Below, piece after piece: positions 1,887-22,204 of a stretch of 24,734 nucleotides of DNA. Source of the DNA: a virus (taxonomy: Duplodnaviria > Caudoviricetes). Positions within the stretch are counted from its first letter, which is position 1. Each line of letters opens with the position of its first letter. The stretch covers positions 1 through 24,734 of the IMG/VR virus record IMGVR_UViG_3300011339_000604. The stretch is one strand, 5' to 3'. The position numbers and the translations under genes are program-made. A model generated the notes under the pieces. That model had not been told where the DNA came from. It made no database searches and saw only the letters and a list, made by a program, of their open reading frames with translations.

Positions 1887-4802
1887 TTAGGCGAATGTCT
1901 CGCCATCATCGACACTAACCAGCTGCGTGATACCTGCCGCTGTGTCATGGTAGTAAAGGTACCAGTTACCAAGCCTCCAGCTAATAGCCGTTTGGTCGTT
2001 CTGTACACCACTGGCTACCACCGCAGATGATGCCGTAATGACGTTACCTTGCGGATCATAGATAACCCTGTGGAGGTCGCTGCCTGTATGCCGGAAGCAA
2101 ACGATACGCTTACCCATGGGGTTGATTCCCACGCTTACGTGTGTCCCTTCTGCACTTACTACTGTTGCCATTGATACGGTTGCTCCTTCGTCATCGGTGT
2201 AGTAGGAATCAATCCCTCCACCTGATTGTTTCTCAACCAAGATATACAACCTGCCGGATGCGCTCGTAGGGTCGTAGGCAATGGCCACGCAGTCAACCTC
2301 AGTTATAGGTGTAGTCACCTCGACAAAGTTGCTAGCGTTCGGACCATCGGCAAAGTGTAGCACCACGGTATGTGATTCCACATTGGCATAGCAAAGCCGT
2401 TGGTTCGGAGCTACATCAACTGACAGACAACCACCTGCAGCCGTCAACGCACGGAACCAAGACCGGAAGCGGTGCGATGTATGCAGCGGATCTATACCGA
2501 TATTGTTGCTACCCTGAATGGCATCGTGGTTGCTTTCGCCAAGCCCCCAGGGAGTGCTAGTGTAATACCGTCCCTCGGCATCTAGGCTGCTATCCGTACC
2601 ACGGTTGGCGCTCGTGGTAGCAAGGAGCAGGTCTACCGTACCGGATGCGGCAGGGTCTCCAGCGCTGTCTAAGATGGCACCGTGAGCGATGCCCCTGAGC
2701 AAACTTCCACCCGCCAAGTATAGCCCCGCTTCGGTGCCACCGTTGACATCGAACGGGTCATTTAGATCCGGTGGAAAGTTGCCATTGATACGGTCAAAGA
2801 GCGTCTGAGCTGTAATGGTGCCAGCCGCTAGTTGATGCCCGTAAGCAAAGTCTGTACCGGTTGTAGCGTGTGGCGTGGCAAGGATACCGCCGCCCCTCAG
2901 CCATGTCGAATAGCCTGTAACGCCGTTGAGGAAACAATCCCGCAGTGGTGGTTGGCTTACCGTACAAGTAGCACCAGCCGGATAGGCAACAGAGTTCGTA
3001 GCCGCCCAGCCGGGATGCCGAACAATGCTATTATCGGATGCGTTGATTTGGTCGCATAGCTCGCTGATGGTTACCGGGTCAACGCTGTAGGTTGTAACCC
3101 CGGTAGCACCGCCGACCGTCTTCTGCCACCAAACATCAGACTCTTCCTCGGTTCTTCCATCGCGATCCTGTTGCCAGAAACGTCTACCGTAGTAGTAGGT
3201 GGTTGTGCCTACCTCTGCAACGATTGCCGGTGTGATTCGCTCAAATTGCGCTGTGAAGGTATCCGGTACGTAAGTAGAATCGGTGTTGGTGTAGGTTAGG
3301 GTTGTTGTACCGATGTCAATAGATCCGCTAGACACCCGTAGTCGCTGGCATGACGTGATGCCCCAGTAAGCCGTATCAACAGACTCACTACCGGCGTAGC
3401 TGCTGGATGTCGTATTCTTCCGAGGGTACGGATTATCCTTGTCTTCGGTTGCCGGTAAGGCACCAAGGCTCCATATGTCAGGGCTGCAAAGGTCAAGGGT
3501 TACGGTGCTGTAGGAGGTCGTAGGCGCCACAACCTGCCATCTTTTCCAGTTGCCGTGGTAATCGGTCAGTTCGATGGTTCCGGAGGCGTTAGTGCCTGAT
3601 TGCGCCTTGATCTGGATTTGCAGGTAACGGTAACCGCTCATGCCTTGGTATGGTGCGTAGGTTCTATCGTTACCTGTACCGGCTATGCTTCGGTTGTTAG
3701 TCTCGGCTATGCTCCAGCCGTTGAAGCGCCAACCTCGGAATAACACTCGGTTGTCCGTGCTACTGTCTCCGTTGGTTGTCAAGCTAGCAGAGGTAAGTTC
3801 CGCATTGATGTATGGCGGTACACCATTCAATGCAGTGGTTAGGTTACTGCTACCGGATGATGTAACAATGGTGGATGCAAAAGAATATTTGTAGAGAGTA
3901 TCTGAACCGCTTATTGATCCGGTTCCTGTTATGTCCCTATAGCCTAGGGTTTCATAATCAAACCCTGTCACACGCATTGTTAGGCTATCCGGGTAGGCTC
4001 CCTCCCAAGCACGTATCCTACTCGTGAGGCTCACAGGAGCGGCTAATCTTGCCGATGATGTCAGGTTAACCGTAGTCTGCTCGGTTGCATATGATGTTCC
4101 ACTTGTTGACCAGTTCCCAGCGGTTTGTCTGTCGTAAGAATGAGAATGTGTTGCTTGATATGGAGTGACACCATTCACCTTTATATTTGTGATTGATGCG
4201 GATGCTGTGCCTGTATCTTCGCAGGTCTGTTGTAGCCCTGCGGTGAAGTCATGGGTGGCAGTTGCACCACCACCCGCTCCAACCGTCCCTGTGGCTGTTG
4301 TAGAGGTTCCTGCAAGGGTTAGGGTAGCTGTACAAGTTGCCGATGGTTTTGCTTGTTCGTAGACTTCGTAAGTTGTATACGGTGGAAACTGCGTTGGTGC
4401 TGAACTTATAGAATATGCCGCCTCACTTATGTTCCATAGTATGTTCGTGTTTACACTTGCCGACCAACTCCCTGTGATTGTTCCAGATATATCAAGATAA
4501 TCAACAGTAGGTGTGCCAGATGCAACCACGATCGTATTACTTGCCGTTTGCCCGTTACCATTTGAGACGCTTACGGACAAAAGGATTTGATATGACCATG
4601 GGTTCCCTGGACGGGCTCTAGGCGTGTTGGTCATACTCATTGACCATGTCCCAGACCATCCCATATGACCATCAACCGAACCGTCAACCTTACCAACTTG
4701 GAGAATAAAAGGAATCAAGTTAGTAGGGTATACAGTCCATGTCCAATCAATCGAAATATCAGCCGCACTGGTCGCAGTACGGCTTATGTCAAGGTATGGC
4801 AT
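1887..4802 (-). CDS. Large minor tail / receptor-binding protein (971 aa) with a C-terminal Asp-box beta-propeller-like region
   Basis: Thr/Ser/Gly-rich beta-type sequence and last gene of the tail module. Asp-box-like YTDDEGAT and SVDDGETF. Confidence 0.6.
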   Translation of the reverse strand: MPYLDISRTATSAADISIDWTWTVYPTNLIPFILQVGKVDGSVDGHMGWSGTWSMSMTNTPRARPGNPWSYQILLSVSVSNGNGQTASNTIVVASGTPTVDYLDISGTITGSWSASVNTNILWNISEAAYSISSAPTQFPPYTTYEVYEQAKPSATCTATLTLAGTSTTATGTVGAGGGATATHDFTAGLQQTCEDTGTASASITNIKVNGVTPYQATHSHSYDRQTAGNWSTSGTSYATEQTTVNLTSSARLAAPVSLTSRIRAWEGAYPDSLTMRVTGFDYETLGYRDITGTGSISGSDTLYKYSFASTIVTSSGSSNLTTALNGVPPYINAELTSASLTTNGDSSTDNRVLFRGWRFNGWSIAETNNRSIAGTGNDRTYAPYQGMSGYRYLQIQIKAQSGTNASGTIELTDYHGNWKRWQVVAPTTSYSTVTLDLCSPDIWSLGALPATEDKDNPYPRKNTTSSSYAGSESVDTAYWGITSCQRLRVSSGSIDIGTTTLTYTNTDSTYVPDTFTAQFERITPAIVAEVGTTTYYYGRRFWQQDRDGRTEEESDVWWQKTVGGATGVTTYSVDPVTISELCDQINASDNSIVRHPGWAATNSVAYPAGATCTVSQPPLRDCFLNGVTGYSTWLRGGGILATPHATTGTDFAYGHQLAAGTITAQTLFDRINGNFPPDLNDPFDVNGGTEAGLYLAGGSLLRGIAHGAILDSAGDPAASGTVDLLLATTSANRGTDSSLDAEGRYYTSTPWGLGESNHDAIQGSNNIGIDPLHTSHRFRSWFRALTAAGGCLSVDVAPNQRLCYANVESHTVVLHFADGPNASNFVEVTTPITEVDCVAIAYDPTSASGRLYILVEKQSGGGIDSYYTDDEGATVSMATVVSAEGTHVSVGINPMGKRIVCFRHTGSDLHRVIYDPQGNVITASSAVVASGVQNDQTAISWRLGNWYLYYHDTAAGITQLVSVDDGETFA

Positions 4803-16635: not shown

Positions 16636-17742
16636 TCATAGGTAAGTTGTTAGATCCGGTTCGTAGCCTTCAAGCTCTTTGAGTGGCCGTACCCGTGTAG
16701 TAGGCCCCCAGTCAGCATTGGGAACCACGGTAACCATGTCGCTCAGCGGAAGCCCCTCAGCGTAAAGGGCATAGCGTGAAGCGCCCATGATAGCCAACTT
16801 GTCAGACTCTGACAAACCAGCAAGGATGCGATCAGGCGTGGCCATCGCTGGGCGTGTGTCAGGGATGGAAGAATCACCGGTTATCTCTGCCCATGAGAGC
16901 GTTTCCGGGACCATAACGCACCTACAATTTACGTGACTAGGCATGATTTCATCTGTCTTGTGCAATGTTCCCGACAACGCTAAACACGCTAAACAGGTTC
17001 TTGCATCCTGCGTAGCCTGCCGTCGGTATCCCTGCACTGCATAGTTCTCGGTATACAGTTGCCGTTGTGCTTCACGGGCGCTTCGTATCATCTCGGTTCG
17101 TGCAATGGTCTCTGCTCGATACCTACCGATGTCTGCCGCTTTGCGTACACGCCGTGCTACCGTCCGTGGCCCTTCACCAAGTGAAATACCCTGTACAAGT
17201 GCCATCTGCATGGCATCTGTTGTTACTTGGGGGATGGAGTCAAATAAGACAGCCAGAGGGCTACCATCGCCTGCGAACCCGACAAAGGCTTGGAGTTGTT
17301 CATCAGGTAGACGTGTCCATGAACTGCCGAGTGAGACGTTAGCCGGTTTACGACCTGCCGCCGCTTCAACCAAGCGTCCGCTCGTCTCATTCGCAAGGAT
17401 GGCTGATTCGAGTTGTCCATCTGCTGTAATGGTTGCCCCCTCGATTGCAAAGGCTTGTAGGTTCCTGCCTAACTCTTCAATGTTGTCTATGATCCGTTGA
17501 CGCATCCACAGGATGGTTTGGCTTGGGTCTTCACCCTCATCCATCCGATCCTGTATGCGTTCCTCTAGTGCTTCGAGTTCTGCGATGCTTGCCTTTGTAG
17601 CGGCTTTGTATGCGCGTTGCATCCGGCTGATGGCTACGCCTTCACGCTCCAGCAACTCGTTCCTAAACTTCTGTGATGCTGCATAAATACGAGCGGTGCC
17701 GTCATCTACTCGTTTGGTAGTGGCTCCAGCTCGTACCCGTAA
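16636..17742 (-). CDS. Head morphogenesis protein (Mu gpF / SPP1 gp7-like), probably entered by -1 frameshift from the portal gene; alternative start TTG 17655
   Basis: RAETIARTE, DARTCLACLAL.G and PSHVNCRC motifs. The frame is open back to 17790 with no ATG before 17655. Confidence 0.85.
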   Translation of the reverse strand, partial: LRVRAGATTKRVDDGTARIYAASQKFRNELLEREGVAISRMQRAYKAATKASIAELEALEERIQDRMDEGEDPSQTILWMRQRIIDNIEELGRNLQAFAIEGATITADGQLESAILANETSGRLVEAAAGRKPANVSLGSSWTRLPDEQLQAFVGFAGDGSPLAVLFDSIPQVTTDAMQMALVQGISLGEGPRTVARRVRKAADIGRYRAETIARTEMIRSAREAQRQLYTENYAVQGYRRQATQDARTCLACLALSGTLHKTDEIMPSHVNCRCVMVPETLSWAEITGDSSIPDTRPAMATPDRILAGLSESDKLAIMGASRYALYAEGLPLSDMVTVVPNADWGPTTRVRPLKELEGYEPDLTTYL

Positions 17743-17748
17743 AAAGGG
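17688..17748 (-). other. Candidate -1 programmed frameshift signal, portal to MuF
   Basis: C CCT TTT heptamer in the portal frame (17748-17742), a 6-nt spacer, and a hairpin closed by TACGAGC/GCTCGTA. Confidence 0.7.
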
Positions 17749-19442
17749 TGAGACTTGTACACTACCCCCGGAGTGCAGACGTGGTCGGTATCAAGGCTCT
17801 TGCCGTCCGTTTGCATTGCATCCCGCTTAGCAGTAGCCCAGCGGAACCCGGCATCACCGCCCCACAAGTCCCAGGCTACACGCCCCGGTGAAGGGAAACC
17901 CTCTTCACCAGCGTTGAACCCTTCAGCCTTTTTGTCTACTTCGTGGCGGCTAAAGAAAGAATACATCCGGAGAATGGTGTCCTCGCTCAGGGTCTCGCCA
18001 TTGACAATCTGGTTAGCCCTTGCCAAGCCTACCCGCGTGCCTCCATCGAACCCCTCGGCTTTCCAATCCAAAGCACGTTGTGCCGCTTCCTTCATGCCGG
18101 ATGTTGGGCGTGCCTTCATCTCGTACGATCGAACTGCCGGAGCATCAAAGCCACCGGTGCTTTGTACCGGGATGGCTTCCGGGTGTAGCTGCCCGGTGTC
18201 CTCCGGCACGGCTTCAAGGCCTGCTATACGCTTTGCTTCCGCTCTATCAATGATGCCAGCCTTGTACAACCGCTCTGCACGTTCCGCTTCAGCCGCTAGG
18301 TCATCAGCCAAAGCCCGCACGGTTTCCAAGTCATATTGGACAAAGTCACCCTCTTGGGTCTCTGGGTACTCTGGCAGGAGGTCGGCGGTAATCGCATCGG
18401 CAAGGGTACGCAGGAGTGGCACCATGCCATCTTCCCATGCCGCCTGTTGGGCGCGCTCAAAGTTGTTGTAGGTAGACCGGTCAAGCCCTGCGCCAAGCCC
18501 TAAGACCATCGGGTTTATGCCCATGGCTGAACAGATACGCTCCTCCGGTACACGTCTCACAGAGTCTAGTGCAAGCTCTGAAGGCGTAAGGGATACCCTA
18601 TCCATCTTGTAGGCACCAGTCATAACAACGATACCACCGGAACCATCCCCGGTAAGGTCTTCGTGCAGCTGGCGCTTAACCTGCCGGGCATCATCCATGC
18701 TGATATCAACGGTCTGGTCTTTGGCATCAGGCCCGACGATGAGCGATGGCATAGCCCCGTTAGCCAAGAGTCCATAAGCGGTAGTAGATGCGGTGTTGTC
18801 AGTGGCTATCTCACGCAGTACAGCCATGACAGGACTTCGTCCTAAACGGATATCCTGCGGGTCTCGGTTGTAGCGGATGTGGATAATGTCGGATACCGGG
18901 ATATCAAAGGAGCGCCCGTCCGTGGTGTAGACGTAATGCGTCAAAGGGTTTGTGCCGTTACCGACAGGGCGCACCATGTCTTGCGGCAGGAACTGTAACG
19001 CGGTCACCACGCCACGCGTTGTAGATCGAATCTTTCTCAGGTACGTGTTGCCGAAGAGTTTGTAGTCTTGGATGACCCAAGACCAGAAAAGGCTACCCAT
19101 AATCATCGGATCGGGTTGAGCCATGAGCTTGATTACCGGGTGGTCTTCTACCGGCTCGGCTTGCTGGCTATCTACCGGTCGGTAGTATCTCGCGGTGGCC
19201 TGTGGGTAGTTACGAACGTACCAGTCGATGGCAGATGCCACGATGCCGTTTAGCCCAAGGTCACCGGCAATCCTAGACCAGTCTTTAGTGCTTCCAGGAA
19301 GCGCACGGCGCAAGAGTGTTTGCAGCTGACCAGAGCCGTAACCGGTTAGGTAGATGTCCCTACTCTGGCTCAGAGGCAGCGGTAGTGCTTGTGTCGGGTT
19401 GGCTGCGGCTTTACGTCCGAGGAAGCGGTCAAAGATACCCAT
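17706..19442 (-). CDS. Portal protein (HK97-like) with an extra C-terminal ~100-aa domain (start revised from 19481 to 19442)
   Basis: MGIFDRFLGRK start, then HP...L..P, LFGNTY, IIHIR, G.SP, NGAMPSLI and STYNNFE portal motifs. Follows TerL. Confidence 0.92.
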   Translation of the reverse strand: MGIFDRFLGRKAAANPTQALPLPLSQSRDIYLTGYGSGQLQTLLRRALPGSTKDWSRIAGDLGLNGIVASAIDWYVRNYPQATARYYRPVDSQQAEPVEDHPVIKLMAQPDPMIMGSLFWSWVIQDYKLFGNTYLRKIRSTTRGVVTALQFLPQDMVRPVGNGTNPLTHYVYTTDGRSFDIPVSDIIHIRYNRDPQDIRLGRSPVMAVLREIATDNTASTTAYGLLANGAMPSLIVGPDAKDQTVDISMDDARQVKRQLHEDLTGDGSGGIVVMTGAYKMDRVSLTPSELALDSVRRVPEERICSAMGINPMVLGLGAGLDRSTYNNFERAQQAAWEDGMVPLLRTLADAITADLLPEYPETQEGDFVQYDLETVRALADDLAAEAERAERLYKAGIIDRAEAKRIAGLEAVPEDTGQLHPEAIPVQSTGGFDAPAVRSYEMKARPTSGMKEAAQRALDWKAEGFDGGTRVGLARANQIVNGETLSEDTILRMYSFFSRHEVDKKAEGFNAGEEGFPSPGRVAWDLWGGDAGFRWATAKRDAMQTDGKSLDTDHVCTPGVVYKSHPFYGYELEPLPNE

Positions 19443-19465: not shown

Positions 19466-20647
19466 CTAAACCGCTCCCCAACCCTTACGCTGTCCGATCA
19501 CCTGCCAAGCGTAAGCCATCGCGTCCACCACGTCATCATGCCTGCCAACCGGGAAGGATAGCAACTCATCTTGCCAATAAGGTGGCAAGCCGTCAACGTG
19601 TACCACCTGCCCTTGCTCGTACCGGGCTTCCAGTGGCCCAAAGCGGGTCACTTTGTCACGGTCTGGTCTGATGCCCCGTATCGGTAACTTCGTACGCCTC
19701 ATGAGTTCTTGAACAACAGCCGCCTGATACTGCACCTGTTCAATGCCAATCATAACCGGATGCCACTTCTCAGCCATCGCCTCAATGAAGCGCAGGACGG
19801 AAGCAAAGTCAGCGCGGGTACGGTTGACATCCAATACGTAGATCGTGCCATCCTCACCACGGCTCAAAGCAACCACGGCGGTGTAGTCGGCTTCCGCCTT
19901 GGTCGATATAGCAAGGTCAACACCAAGGTAGACCGGCAACCCTTCAGGCGCCTCGCCAAACCTTAGCCACTCCCGCTTGATACGAGCGCCCGCGGCATCA
20001 ACGAACTCCGCCAAGTACTCTTGCCTAAACGCGATGCTCGGCAGTGACTCCCCAGCTTTGGCTACTTCCTCCGGATCAATCCAAGGGTTAGCCGTGGTTG
20101 GCATCTGCCATGACATCCAATCCGGATCTACAGCCGCCATGGCGTGTAGGGTTTTGAAGTAGTTGCTACCCTTGGGAGTGCTCAAGAAGAAAGCATCTCC
20201 ACGGTAGTCGGTTAGTGTTGGTCGAATAGCCTCCGTCCAGGCTTGCTCCAGATGCCTTGCCATTGCCGCCTCATCGATGATGACCCGCTTGTACTTTCGA
20301 CCACGGGCTACGGTTGACGGGTCATCCAAAGTCCAGTAATCGATTGCTGCCCCGGTTATCAACTCGATGCGCGGTGCAGGTGTCTGCACAGCTCGCCGAA
20401 TCACAGGAGCGTAAATCCTTTTATGGTCGTTGTACGCTTCCTCTAGCAACCGGTAGGTAGGTGCAAACCAAGCGCAGGGCAGACCGTCACGCAGTACCGG
20501 ATCCGATAGCAGGTTTCCGCCAAGGGTTGTTTTTCCGAATCTTCGACCTACTCAGCCACAGGCAAGGACGTTGAATCGCCTTGCCTGTGCCATTATCACC
20601 TGCTGTGCTTCATGTGGTCGAGGTAAGACCAATCGTATGTCTGGCAT
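19466..20647 (-). CDS. terL: Terminase large subunit with an in-frame TGA at codon 32 (20554-20552) inside a 9-nt insert in the Walker A region
   Basis: ATG 20647 overlaps the TerS stop (TAATG). Reads MPDIRLVLPRPHEAQQ...FNVLACG*VGRRFGKTT...WFAPTY, in frame with the 327-aa ORF that carries Walker B IIDEAA, LSTPKG, GVDLA and HDDVVDA. Confidence 0.9.
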
Positions 20648-20997
20648 TATGGTTTGTCAGCGTACTCCACGATGACCTTGACCGGGCTACCGTCTGCCCC
20701 GGTCTGCTCTACCCGGCTAGACCACTCTGCTTTGTGCTTCCGTTCAAGCCACCATGCAGCCGCCTGCCATGTGGTGTCAGCTGCTTTTTGAATGATGGCA
20801 ACGTTGCGTACCTCGGCATCAGACTCAGCCTTTTTTACAGCCTCCGCAAATTCCGACTTATCAGCAAGCCAGTTTGCGAATGTGTCTTCTGAGATACCAG
20901 CGTATCCACAAGCGGCTCTGCGTGTATTGCCTGCTCTGAGTGCTTGTGTAATACGTGTTGTTGTTTCTTCGCCGTACTTTGTAGGTCTACCTGCCAT
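20647..20997 (-). CDS. terS: Terminase small subunit
   Basis: GRPTKY start, HTH (ACGYAGISEDTFANW), WQAAAWWLER and EQTGADGSPV tail. Directly upstream of TerL. Confidence 0.85.
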   Translation of the reverse strand: MAGRPTKYGEETTTRITQALRAGNTRRAACGYAGISEDTFANWLADKSEFAEAVKKAESDAEVRNVAIIQKAADTTWQAAAWWLERKHKAEWSSRVEQTGADGSPVKVIVEYADKP

Positions 20998-22204
20998 CTA
21001 GTACCGCCTTCTTGCCTGTCGCGTTTTCCCATCGCTGAATGATTACATCGCAGTACTTGGGGCTGATTTCCATCCCGTAGCAATTGCGCCCCAACTGCTC
21101 TGCTGCAATGAGGGTTGTCCCTGAACCAAGGAATGGATCGTAGACTGAATCACTATCATGGTTGCGCTGAGGTATTGCCATACATTCAAGTGGCTTTTGT
21201 GTACTATGACCAGTTTCACTTTTCATAGGTTTGTCGATTTGCCACAATGTTGTTTGAGACCTATCACCTATAAATTTCGATGTTTTTCCATGACGGTAAA
21301 CATACCAGCATGGTTCATGTTTATGATGATAATGCCCCCTCGAAATGGAAAAGTTACTTTTAGCCCAAACGATTAAGTTCCTTAGTTCAAAACCAGCTGC
21401 TTGTAAGTTACTTGCAACCGTTGGTGATTTAGAATCGGCATGCCAAACGTAAGCAACATCGCCTGGAAATAGTTTCCACGTTTCCGTCCAGTCTGCTTTA
21501 TCATCGTTCGTTACCAACCCTACGGCGCGTTCGCCGTAGGGTTTCCCGTTTTGCCTATCCATTTCGTTTCGCCAGTTAGGGTCGTATTCAACGCCATACG
21601 GTGGGTCGGTGACCATTAGAAATGGAATAGCACCATCCATCAACCGCTCAACATCATCTGCCTTGGTGCTGTCTCCGCAGAGCAATCGATGGTTACCAAG
21701 AATCCAAAGGTCTCCCGGCTTACATCGTGTCTCAACTTCCTCTGGTACTTCATCCGGATCGGTTAGCAGTTCTTCCGGTTCACCTGTCCCGGTCAAGGAA
21801 TCAATAAGCGCATCAAGGTCAACTGCCGAGTATCCAGTACCATCCAAGCCGATAGGCGTATTAGCAAGCTCGGCTAAGATGTCGGTAATCTTGGTCGTGT
21901 CATCCTGCCCGATACGGGTAGTACGGTTATCGACTACAAGAATCCGCAGCTCTTCTTCAGGTGTAACGTCAATCCACTGCACGGGTACGGTTTCCCATCC
22001 TAGCGCCTTGGCAGCCATTACCCGGTGATTTCCCGCTAGGATGTGCTTAGTGGTCAGGTTAGCCACCACAGAGCCGTACCAGCCGTTTACTGCTAGAGAC
22101 TTCTTGATGGCTTCAACGTCTCCATGGTTGGCGTTGCGTGGGTGGTGCTTGAGCAGGTCAATAGCGACCTGCTCAATCCCCTTGTTGATTACTCTACTTG
22201 CCAT
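20987..22204 (-). CDS. ParB/Srx N-terminal domain fused to an N6-adenine/N4-cytosine DNA methyltransferase (beta class)
   Basis: LKHHPRNA...ILAGNHRVMAA...DNR (ParB-N), HRLLCGDS, TDPPY, HSTQKP and DPFLGSGTT motifs. Confidence 0.92.
   Translation of the reverse strand: MASRVINKGIEQVAIDLLKHHPRNANHGDVEAIKKSLAVNGWYGSVVANLTTKHILAGNHRVMAAKALGWETVPVQWIDVTPEEELRILVVDNRTTRIGQDDTTKITDILAELANTPIGLDGTGYSAVDLDALIDSLTGTGEPEELLTDPDEVPEEVETRCKPGDLWILGNHRLLCGDSTKADDVERLMDGAIPFLMVTDPPYGVEYDPNWRNEMDRQNGKPYGERAVGLVTNDDKADWTETWKLFPGDVAYVWHADSKSPTVASNLQAAGFELRNLIVWAKSNFSISRGHYHHKHEPCWYVYRHGKTSKFIGDRSQTTLWQIDKPMKSETGHSTQKPLECMAIPQRNHDSDSVYDPFLGSGTTLIAAEQLGRNCYGMEISPKYCDVIIQRWENATGKKAVLDGR

Follow-up and report, generated by a model that had tools for sequence, protein, structure and literature searches.

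How does a phage make its large terminase subunit when a stop codon lies within the Walker A motif of its only terL gene? The window analysed here, meaning the whole 24,734-nt stretch of DNA, is a linear virus record that is about 81% complete and has a single terL match. On the minus strand the terL reading frame runs from the ATG at 20647 through VLACG*VGRRFGKT and is open onward to the TAG at 19468-19466; the lone stop in this frame follows Gly31 (GGC TGA GTA GGT, then RRFGKT). The first-pass annotation had described a 9-nt gap, GGC-UGA-GUA-GGU, with in-frame continuation, a terL start coupled to the terS stop, a 31-residue peptide from ORF1 and a 390-residue product once the gap is left out, and we found the layout and both product sizes to be as claimed (Table 1). 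We propose that ribosomes bypass the nine bases from GGC to GGU, which would give a normal 390-residue TerL; judging from comparative sequence evidence, we put the probability of this reading at about 0.82.

The genes around the gap look functional. Pfam searches of the window recovered both terminase domains in terL and intact terS, portal, protease, capsid and tape-measure genes. No tRNA gene was found in the window. Re-initiation after the stop was considered and rejected: no in-frame start codon precedes Walker A, and initiation at the first TTG would leave the motif out. Two neighbouring genes reach beyond their Pfam matches. The portal protein (577 aa) extends about 170 residues past its portal match at 67-405 (window 17706-18230, minus strand). 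Directly upstream of terS lies a DNA methylase (20987-22204, minus strand), in which PF01555 at residues 196-388 leaves the N-terminal half outside; related loci swap different methylase-like genes at this position.

Table 1. Positions of the terL gap, its hairpin and flanking genes in the window, and of the 8-nt gaps in two distant terminases
Feature	Position	Strand	Remarks
terS	20647..20997	-	TAA overlaps terL ATG (TAATG); PF20901, E 8e-6, just under cut-off
terL ORF1	20552..20647	-	31 codons + UGA; putative cassette-type replacement N-terminus
Predicted hairpin	20555..20591	-	ends on take-off codon
Hairpin 5' arm	20589-20577	-	
Hairpin loop	20576-20571	-	
Hairpin 3' arm	20570-20557	-	one bulged U
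Hairpin outer pair	G20591-C20555	-	
Putative take-off codon GGC	20555..20557	-	Gly31, invariant and followed by RR in Walker A
UGA stop	20552..20554	-	adjoins take-off codon on its 3' side
Gap spacer GUA	20549..20551	-	GAA or GUGUA in relatives
Putative landing codon GGU	20546..20548	-	
terL ORF2	19466..20545	-	resume codon CGA, 359 codons; rest of ATPase + nuclease domain (PF03237, PF17289)
Portal gene	17706..19439	-	intact; intact head genes follow
8-nt gaps	L632:903-913; L637:919-929	-	distant terminases

Conservation of the gap in intact terL genes

The gap is real and conserved. A tblastn search of IMG/VR, whose query held the three extra residues and may therefore favour carriers, showed it in 33 of the 80 best relatives, at 86-98% identity. 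Patterns anchored only on the upstream codons matched 89 viral stretches, 86 of them with the gap, and 40 metagenome stretches, 38 of them with it. This recurrence rules out a sequencing error or a lone nonsense mutation, as the first-pass annotation had argued, and DNA contigs of related sequence (runs X1 and X7) cross the gap site without an indel. The same annotation had pointed to close relatives as a check on the gap: no sense codon replaces the UGA in any of the 86 and 38 stem-anchored carriers, and 47 of the 80 best relatives have no gap. Five pattern stretches likewise have no gap; four of them (L279, L283, L340 and L364) are terL alleles that bear the stem and from which the gap is exactly absent, and the fifth (L329) is a divergent gene. 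The pattern matches L094, L104 and L598, and most matches with a gap length other than 9 or 11 nt, were rejected as chance matches or intact genes. No close cultured phage was found, and a genome search for the host gave a best match of 56%, with no gap in the genomes that have a readable Walker A.

Removal of duplicates left 93 carriers and 47 gap-free genes; L329 was removed before the statistics, and the codon alignment excludes 16 incomplete genes. The Gly-stop-Gly arrangement is conserved across this set. All 93 carriers have GGC-UGA at the take-off site, where gap-free genes use all four Gly codons, and the landing codon is GGU in 86, GGC in six and GAU in one, the GAU genotype being identical in three stretches. 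The proposed matching of landing to take-off codon is thus borne out by GGY in 92 of the 93, and the GAU genotype means that the rule is not absolute. A strict matched-codon rule is hard to reconcile with this allele, and so is readthrough; a hop set by distance, or excision of RNA, is compatible with it.

The worry that the gene belongs to a decayed element was not borne out. In 79 of 79 distinct complete carriers, 359 open codons follow the gap, and purifying selection is about as strong in carriers as in gap-free genes (pN/pS 0.131 versus 0.117, with pS near 0.6; 600 sampled pairs each). An extra nonsense codon occurs in L264, an incomplete stretch. Carriers and gap-free alleles interleave on a FastTree phylogeny of the terL body, over which the gap is scattered with at least 27 changes, at least 19 of them forced by strong branches.

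The upstream hairpin, gap length and the proposed hop

The 11-bp stem that had been placed at 20589-20579 and 20567-20557, ending at the first base of the GGC codon, is found in both the MFE and the centroid structures of the window, where a bulged U is followed by two further inner pairs; for the 161-nt fold, z is -2.38. The predicted energy of the 39-nt hairpin is -23.6 kcal/mol, and none of 1000 shuffles folds as well. The mean hairpin energy is -23.6 in the 93 carriers versus -11.8 in the 47 gap-free genes, and the hairpin is missing from most gap-free alleles. The difference can be followed into the protein: residues 19-23 read M/LAQAR in 93 of 93 carriers versus three of 46 gap-free genes, and gap-free alleles have L[RK]EA[KR] there, mostly LREAK. 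The M/LAQAR replacement builds the 5' arm of the hairpin.

Judged by its codons, the hairpin is under selection. In carriers the ten stem codons have a synonymous diversity of 0.059, versus 0.366 in gap-free genes; an amino-acid-matched null gives 0.418, and none of 100000 draws was as low as the carriers' value. Diversity is normal in the two loop codons between the arms (0.46 and 0.43) and in codons 32-45 after the gap (0.59), and for this reason the frozen stem cannot be put down to a selective sweep. In 24 hand-picked carriers, pairing is kept in 336 of 336 pair cells. The compensatory changes sought by the first-pass annotation are present in two columns, A-U to G-C in six sequences and G-C to A-U in four, which probably reflect few events, and the number of pairs changed on both sides (two) does not by itself beat the shuffles, being reached by 223 of 500. 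The consensus of these 24 carriers holds no pairs in or after the gap, and the pairing of UCGACC with the landing region seen in the MFE structure of the window was discarded, as it is absent from that consensus. A strong Shine-Dalgarno-like AGGUGAU lies just 5' of the hairpin (20601-20595, minus strand); it is also present in many gap-free alleles and altered in many carriers.

Variation in gap length, which had been named as something to look for, was found, with lengths of 8, 9 and 11 nt. The 11-nt allele is carried by two contigs of different assemblies, both copies being otherwise intact. A 5' block of about 130 nt is the same in both, so they represent one mutation rather than two; since their upstream genes differ and their terL bodies stand at a pS of 0.58, one frame-breaking allele has moved between genomes. 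Wider scans gave two true cases among 41 matches (L632 and L637), the other 39 being chance matches or intact genes. Both are distant terminases, whose best segments reach 37% and about 51% identity, and each has an independent 8-nt gap, GGU-UGA-A(C/U)-GGC, at the same Walker A codon. In both, the same upstream hairpin ends on the take-off codon and contains further compensatory changes, and no hairpin among 77 intact distant terL genes is as strong as either; the loop of L632 is one codon shorter. A second frameshift lies downstream in L637, whose gene may be dead or misassembled. Neither 8 nor 11 nt is a multiple of three, so readthrough cannot decode these alleles. The spacing before RR is invariant in all 108 scorable homologues among the 120 listed.

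Since relatives keep the gap in otherwise intact genes, ribosomes likely hop over it. In the mechanism we propose, the ribosome would pause when peptidyl-tRNA-Gly(GCC) occupies GGC and the A site holds UGA. At this point the 14-nt 3' arm of the hairpin would still be inside the ribosome, and its pairing could be completed only after an mRNA advance of about the length of the gap. Zipping of the 3' arm onto the 5' arm outside would pull the mRNA through and capture the take-off codon; tRNA-Gly(GCC) would then re-pair 8-11 bases further on, at GGU in the window, and decoding would resume at Arg. Ribosomes that terminate instead would release the 31-aa peptide. In this model the hop is likely driven by the upstream hairpin. 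A model in which the exiting mRNA is the driver has been put forward for T4, with about 26 nt between the structure and the P site (10.1101/2024.12.09.627546); this is more than the 7-9 nt of the terL gap, so the match in geometry is tentative. The hop from GGC to GGU suggested by the first-pass annotation is favoured by the conserved gap, its 8-, 9- and 11-nt lengths, the compensation in the stem, the lack of sense codons at the UGA in carriers and purifying selection on the gene.

A putative homing cassette and the rival explanations

An antisense 196-aa HNH ORF (PF13392, E 2e-10; weak NUMOD3) lies directly upstream of terL in 10 of 84 carriers and in none of 45 gap-free genes, counting loci with enough flank (Fisher p 0.015, with kinship left uncorrected). 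One copy of the HNH gene occupies L002:2385-2972 on the minus strand. Among the 80 homologue matches listed, the 11 at 66% identity or more are all upstream of a gap-carrying terL. The window itself has no tblastn match to the HNH gene, and 74 of the 84 carriers likewise have the gap and no HNH gene. Four contigs from three genomic backgrounds retain, on the far side of the HNH gene, an old gap-free terL N-terminus that ends exactly at the Cys codon; on the near side of the HNH gene the same contigs have the new N-terminus, the hairpin and the gap. The distant L632 keeps an old N-terminus ending at RRFNVL and has no HNH match, some other loci have the HNH gene and no remnant of the old start, and most loci, including the window, have neither.

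The HNH gene beside carriers and the leftover terL start cut before the Gly codon suggest that the gap is the end of a cassette. We infer an origin in a homing cassette like that of T4 MobA, partly lost in the window, with the HNH gene likely having delivered the gap. Such a cassette would consist of the antisense HNH gene, a replacement N-terminus, the hairpin and, as its 3' end, the gap; its point of insertion would be the Cys|Gly junction in Walker A, where it would supply a new start for terL, and the gap would spoil the nuclease target without changing the protein. By analogy, the purpose of the gap is most likely immunity to the cassette's own predicted nuclease. The window likely lost its HNH gene by recombination between the two N-terminal copies, and the hairpin and gap that it kept would still protect it from HNH-carrying competitors. 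The stages of such an element would all be visible among these loci: newly inserted cassettes, loci that have lost the old start, loci without the nuclease, and alleles from which the gap has gone exactly.

Several further features of this region were observed. Distant relatives of the HNH protein (36-37% identity) lie directly before intact terL genes and in the same sense in L395-L398, at about 2500-3000, a placement that fits an HNH family aimed at the terL start region. The interval between terS and terL is an insertion hotspot in related loci (e.g. L006, L004, L182 and L390), the place being taken in turn by the HNH gene, a tRNA-like stretch, a 123-aa gene or a 132-aa gene that resembles a dUTPase (49 loci). 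A promoter scan of the full cassette gave matches at chance level.

A fuller account would hold that a signal of about 50 nt, in which the coding hairpin alone drives a natural, mostly in-frame stop hop in an essential gene and sets its distance (8-11 nt, even with a mismatched landing codon), was spread through wild phage populations by an HNH cassette whose insertion doubles the terL start, and that orphan gaps are kept as immunity alleles against its nuclease. We give this combined account even odds.

The purpose of the gap could also be regulatory, with the bypass kept mainly because it limits or times TerL production; this would compete with immunity as the purpose and leave the decoding step as it is. 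We consider it rather unlikely. That 74 of 84 carriers keep the gap without an HNH gene speaks for it, as does the rarity of exact gap loss, which the four stem-bearing stretches prove to be possible, and a regulatory role has been proposed for the Hau3 terminase (PMC10732093). However, gap-free alleles are as common in close relatives and are mixed with carriers across the tree, hopping would be set off by a stop rather than by a hungry codon that depends on conditions, and a cassette origin would already account for both position and spread. The gating of the packaging motor suggested by the first-pass annotation found no support, given how many of the best relatives (47 of 80) do without the gap.

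Removal of the 8-11 bases from the RNA before translation, by a micro-intron or a skipping polymerase, is improbable. It would work in any frame and accommodate the GAU allele, and introns are frequent companions of homing nucleases, but so short a gap comes nowhere near the size of a group I or group II ribozyme, and we know of no bacterial enzyme for such a micro-excision. A stop in frame directly after a Gly codon, with GGY at the landing site in 92 of 93 carriers, fits the rules of decoding. Contigs from the RNA libraries X15, X19 and X20 run across the site with 0 gaps and retain the bases in question, and no 9-base skip is listed in six RNA-labelled runs, observations that weigh little because these are contigs and may hold DNA.

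The main alternative named at the outset was UGA readthrough, by near-cognate Trp or by Sec, which would place three additional residues ahead of the P-loop in a 393-aa TerL. The commonest allele (9 nt) is in frame, UGA leaks more than the other stops, and AlphaFold still folds the TGA=W form with a mean pLDDT of 87.1. Several findings make readthrough very unlikely all the same. It would not rescue the 11-nt and 8-nt alleles; neither TGG nor any other sense codon has taken the place of the stop in the 86 and 38 carriers, while the gap is exactly absent from four stem-bearing stretches; extra residues occur at this site in none of the 108 scorable homologues (120 listed); and the GAU allele would place Asp at the invariant Gly. 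The conserved structure lies 5' of the gap. Directly 3' of the UGA there is no conserved structure, codons 32-45 varying as freely as the rest of the gene (0.59) with no consensus helix, which leaves no room for a SECIS or another 3' stimulator. A lesser point is that the pLDDT of residues 31-40 falls from 92 to 71 in the readthrough form. Finally, TGA is the commonest stop in the window, ending 13 of 31 genes, and there are 147 TGG codons; these counts also exclude reassignment of UGA to Trp or Gly. That carriers are defective phages complemented by gap-free helpers, so that the gap is never decoded, is barely credible: the window record is incomplete (81%) and gap-free relatives are common, but all 79 complete carriers are otherwise intact, with a pN/pS of 0.13 at near-saturated synonymous distance, and selection on the hairpin would be senseless in a gene that is not read.

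Comparison with known bypass systems

A ribosomal bypass from GGC to GGU is our preferred reading, and programmed bypassing has been proven for very few natural genes. In the open literature we found no report of an HNH/terL bypass cassette and two precedents, T4 and Hau3. The tiny terL cassette supplies natural variants of gap length, landing codon and stem pairs, which allow a direct test of whether pairing of the exiting mRNA drives forward bypassing, as has been proposed (10.1101/2024.12.09.627546). Gap-carrying terL genes are likely annotated as truncated terminases without Walker A, and entries of 327-352 aa are present among the homologue matches.

Our comparison with T4 gene 60/MobA draws on the published account (10.1101/2022.08.31.505936). 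Both systems have an HNH gene, host codons replaced by codons of the element and a gap that ends at the landing codon; in both, the insertion is at an invariant Gly, a stop comes right after the take-off codon, the Gly codons are wobble-matched, and loss proceeds in stages, the nuclease often being gone while the gap stays. For MobA, the gap is reported there to block self-cleavage. An adjacent HNH gene, a mark of T4/MobA, is present in relatives of the window (10 of 84 carriers) and absent from the window, a state that this account describes for the T4 family as well. The differences are as numerous. The target is the Walker A motif of terL here and the large subunit of topoisomerase in T4/MobA, and the gap is 8-11 nt and mostly in frame, compared with about 50 nt in T4 gene 60/MobA. 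The terL hairpin is wholly coding, precedes the stop and reaches as far as the take-off codon; in the T4 family, by the same account, a stem-loop inside the gap is conserved and the 5' one is not, whereas the terL gap contains none. The only mini-Shine-Dalgarno candidate in terL is GAG, 2 nt before the landing codon, compared with about 6 nt in T4. Finally, the HNH gene is antisense here and the element duplicates a whole N-terminus, in contrast to the two-subunit enzyme of T4. By this comparison the terL gap is not a member of the T4 gene 60/MobA family, and it would work like it.

The terminase sites of phiHau3 and of prophages (PMC10732093) are similar in another way: a short gap follows a Gly codon in the large terminase gene, at a junction where homologues tolerate no insertion, and an RNA structure has been proposed. 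Those gaps are 7-10 nt long, shift the frame, were reported in three of 100 genes and have been proposed to act as a life-cycle sensor; for a UAA variant expressed in E. coli, the junction peptide was found by mass spectrometry (PMC10732093). The trigger differs: the phiHau3 gap opens with a rare UUA codon, and all terL carriers here have UGA. The terL gap, unlike the phiHau3 sites, comes with a large polymorphic population and a nuclease cassette. A third comparison is with a synthetic in-frame stop hop in E. coli, in which 9 nt are read as one residue and six are skipped; the 2016 review that describes it states that a natural in-frame stop hop was not known (PMC5009743). By comparison with that synthetic case, terL would use 12 nt for one residue and skip nine, and its hairpin is under selection.
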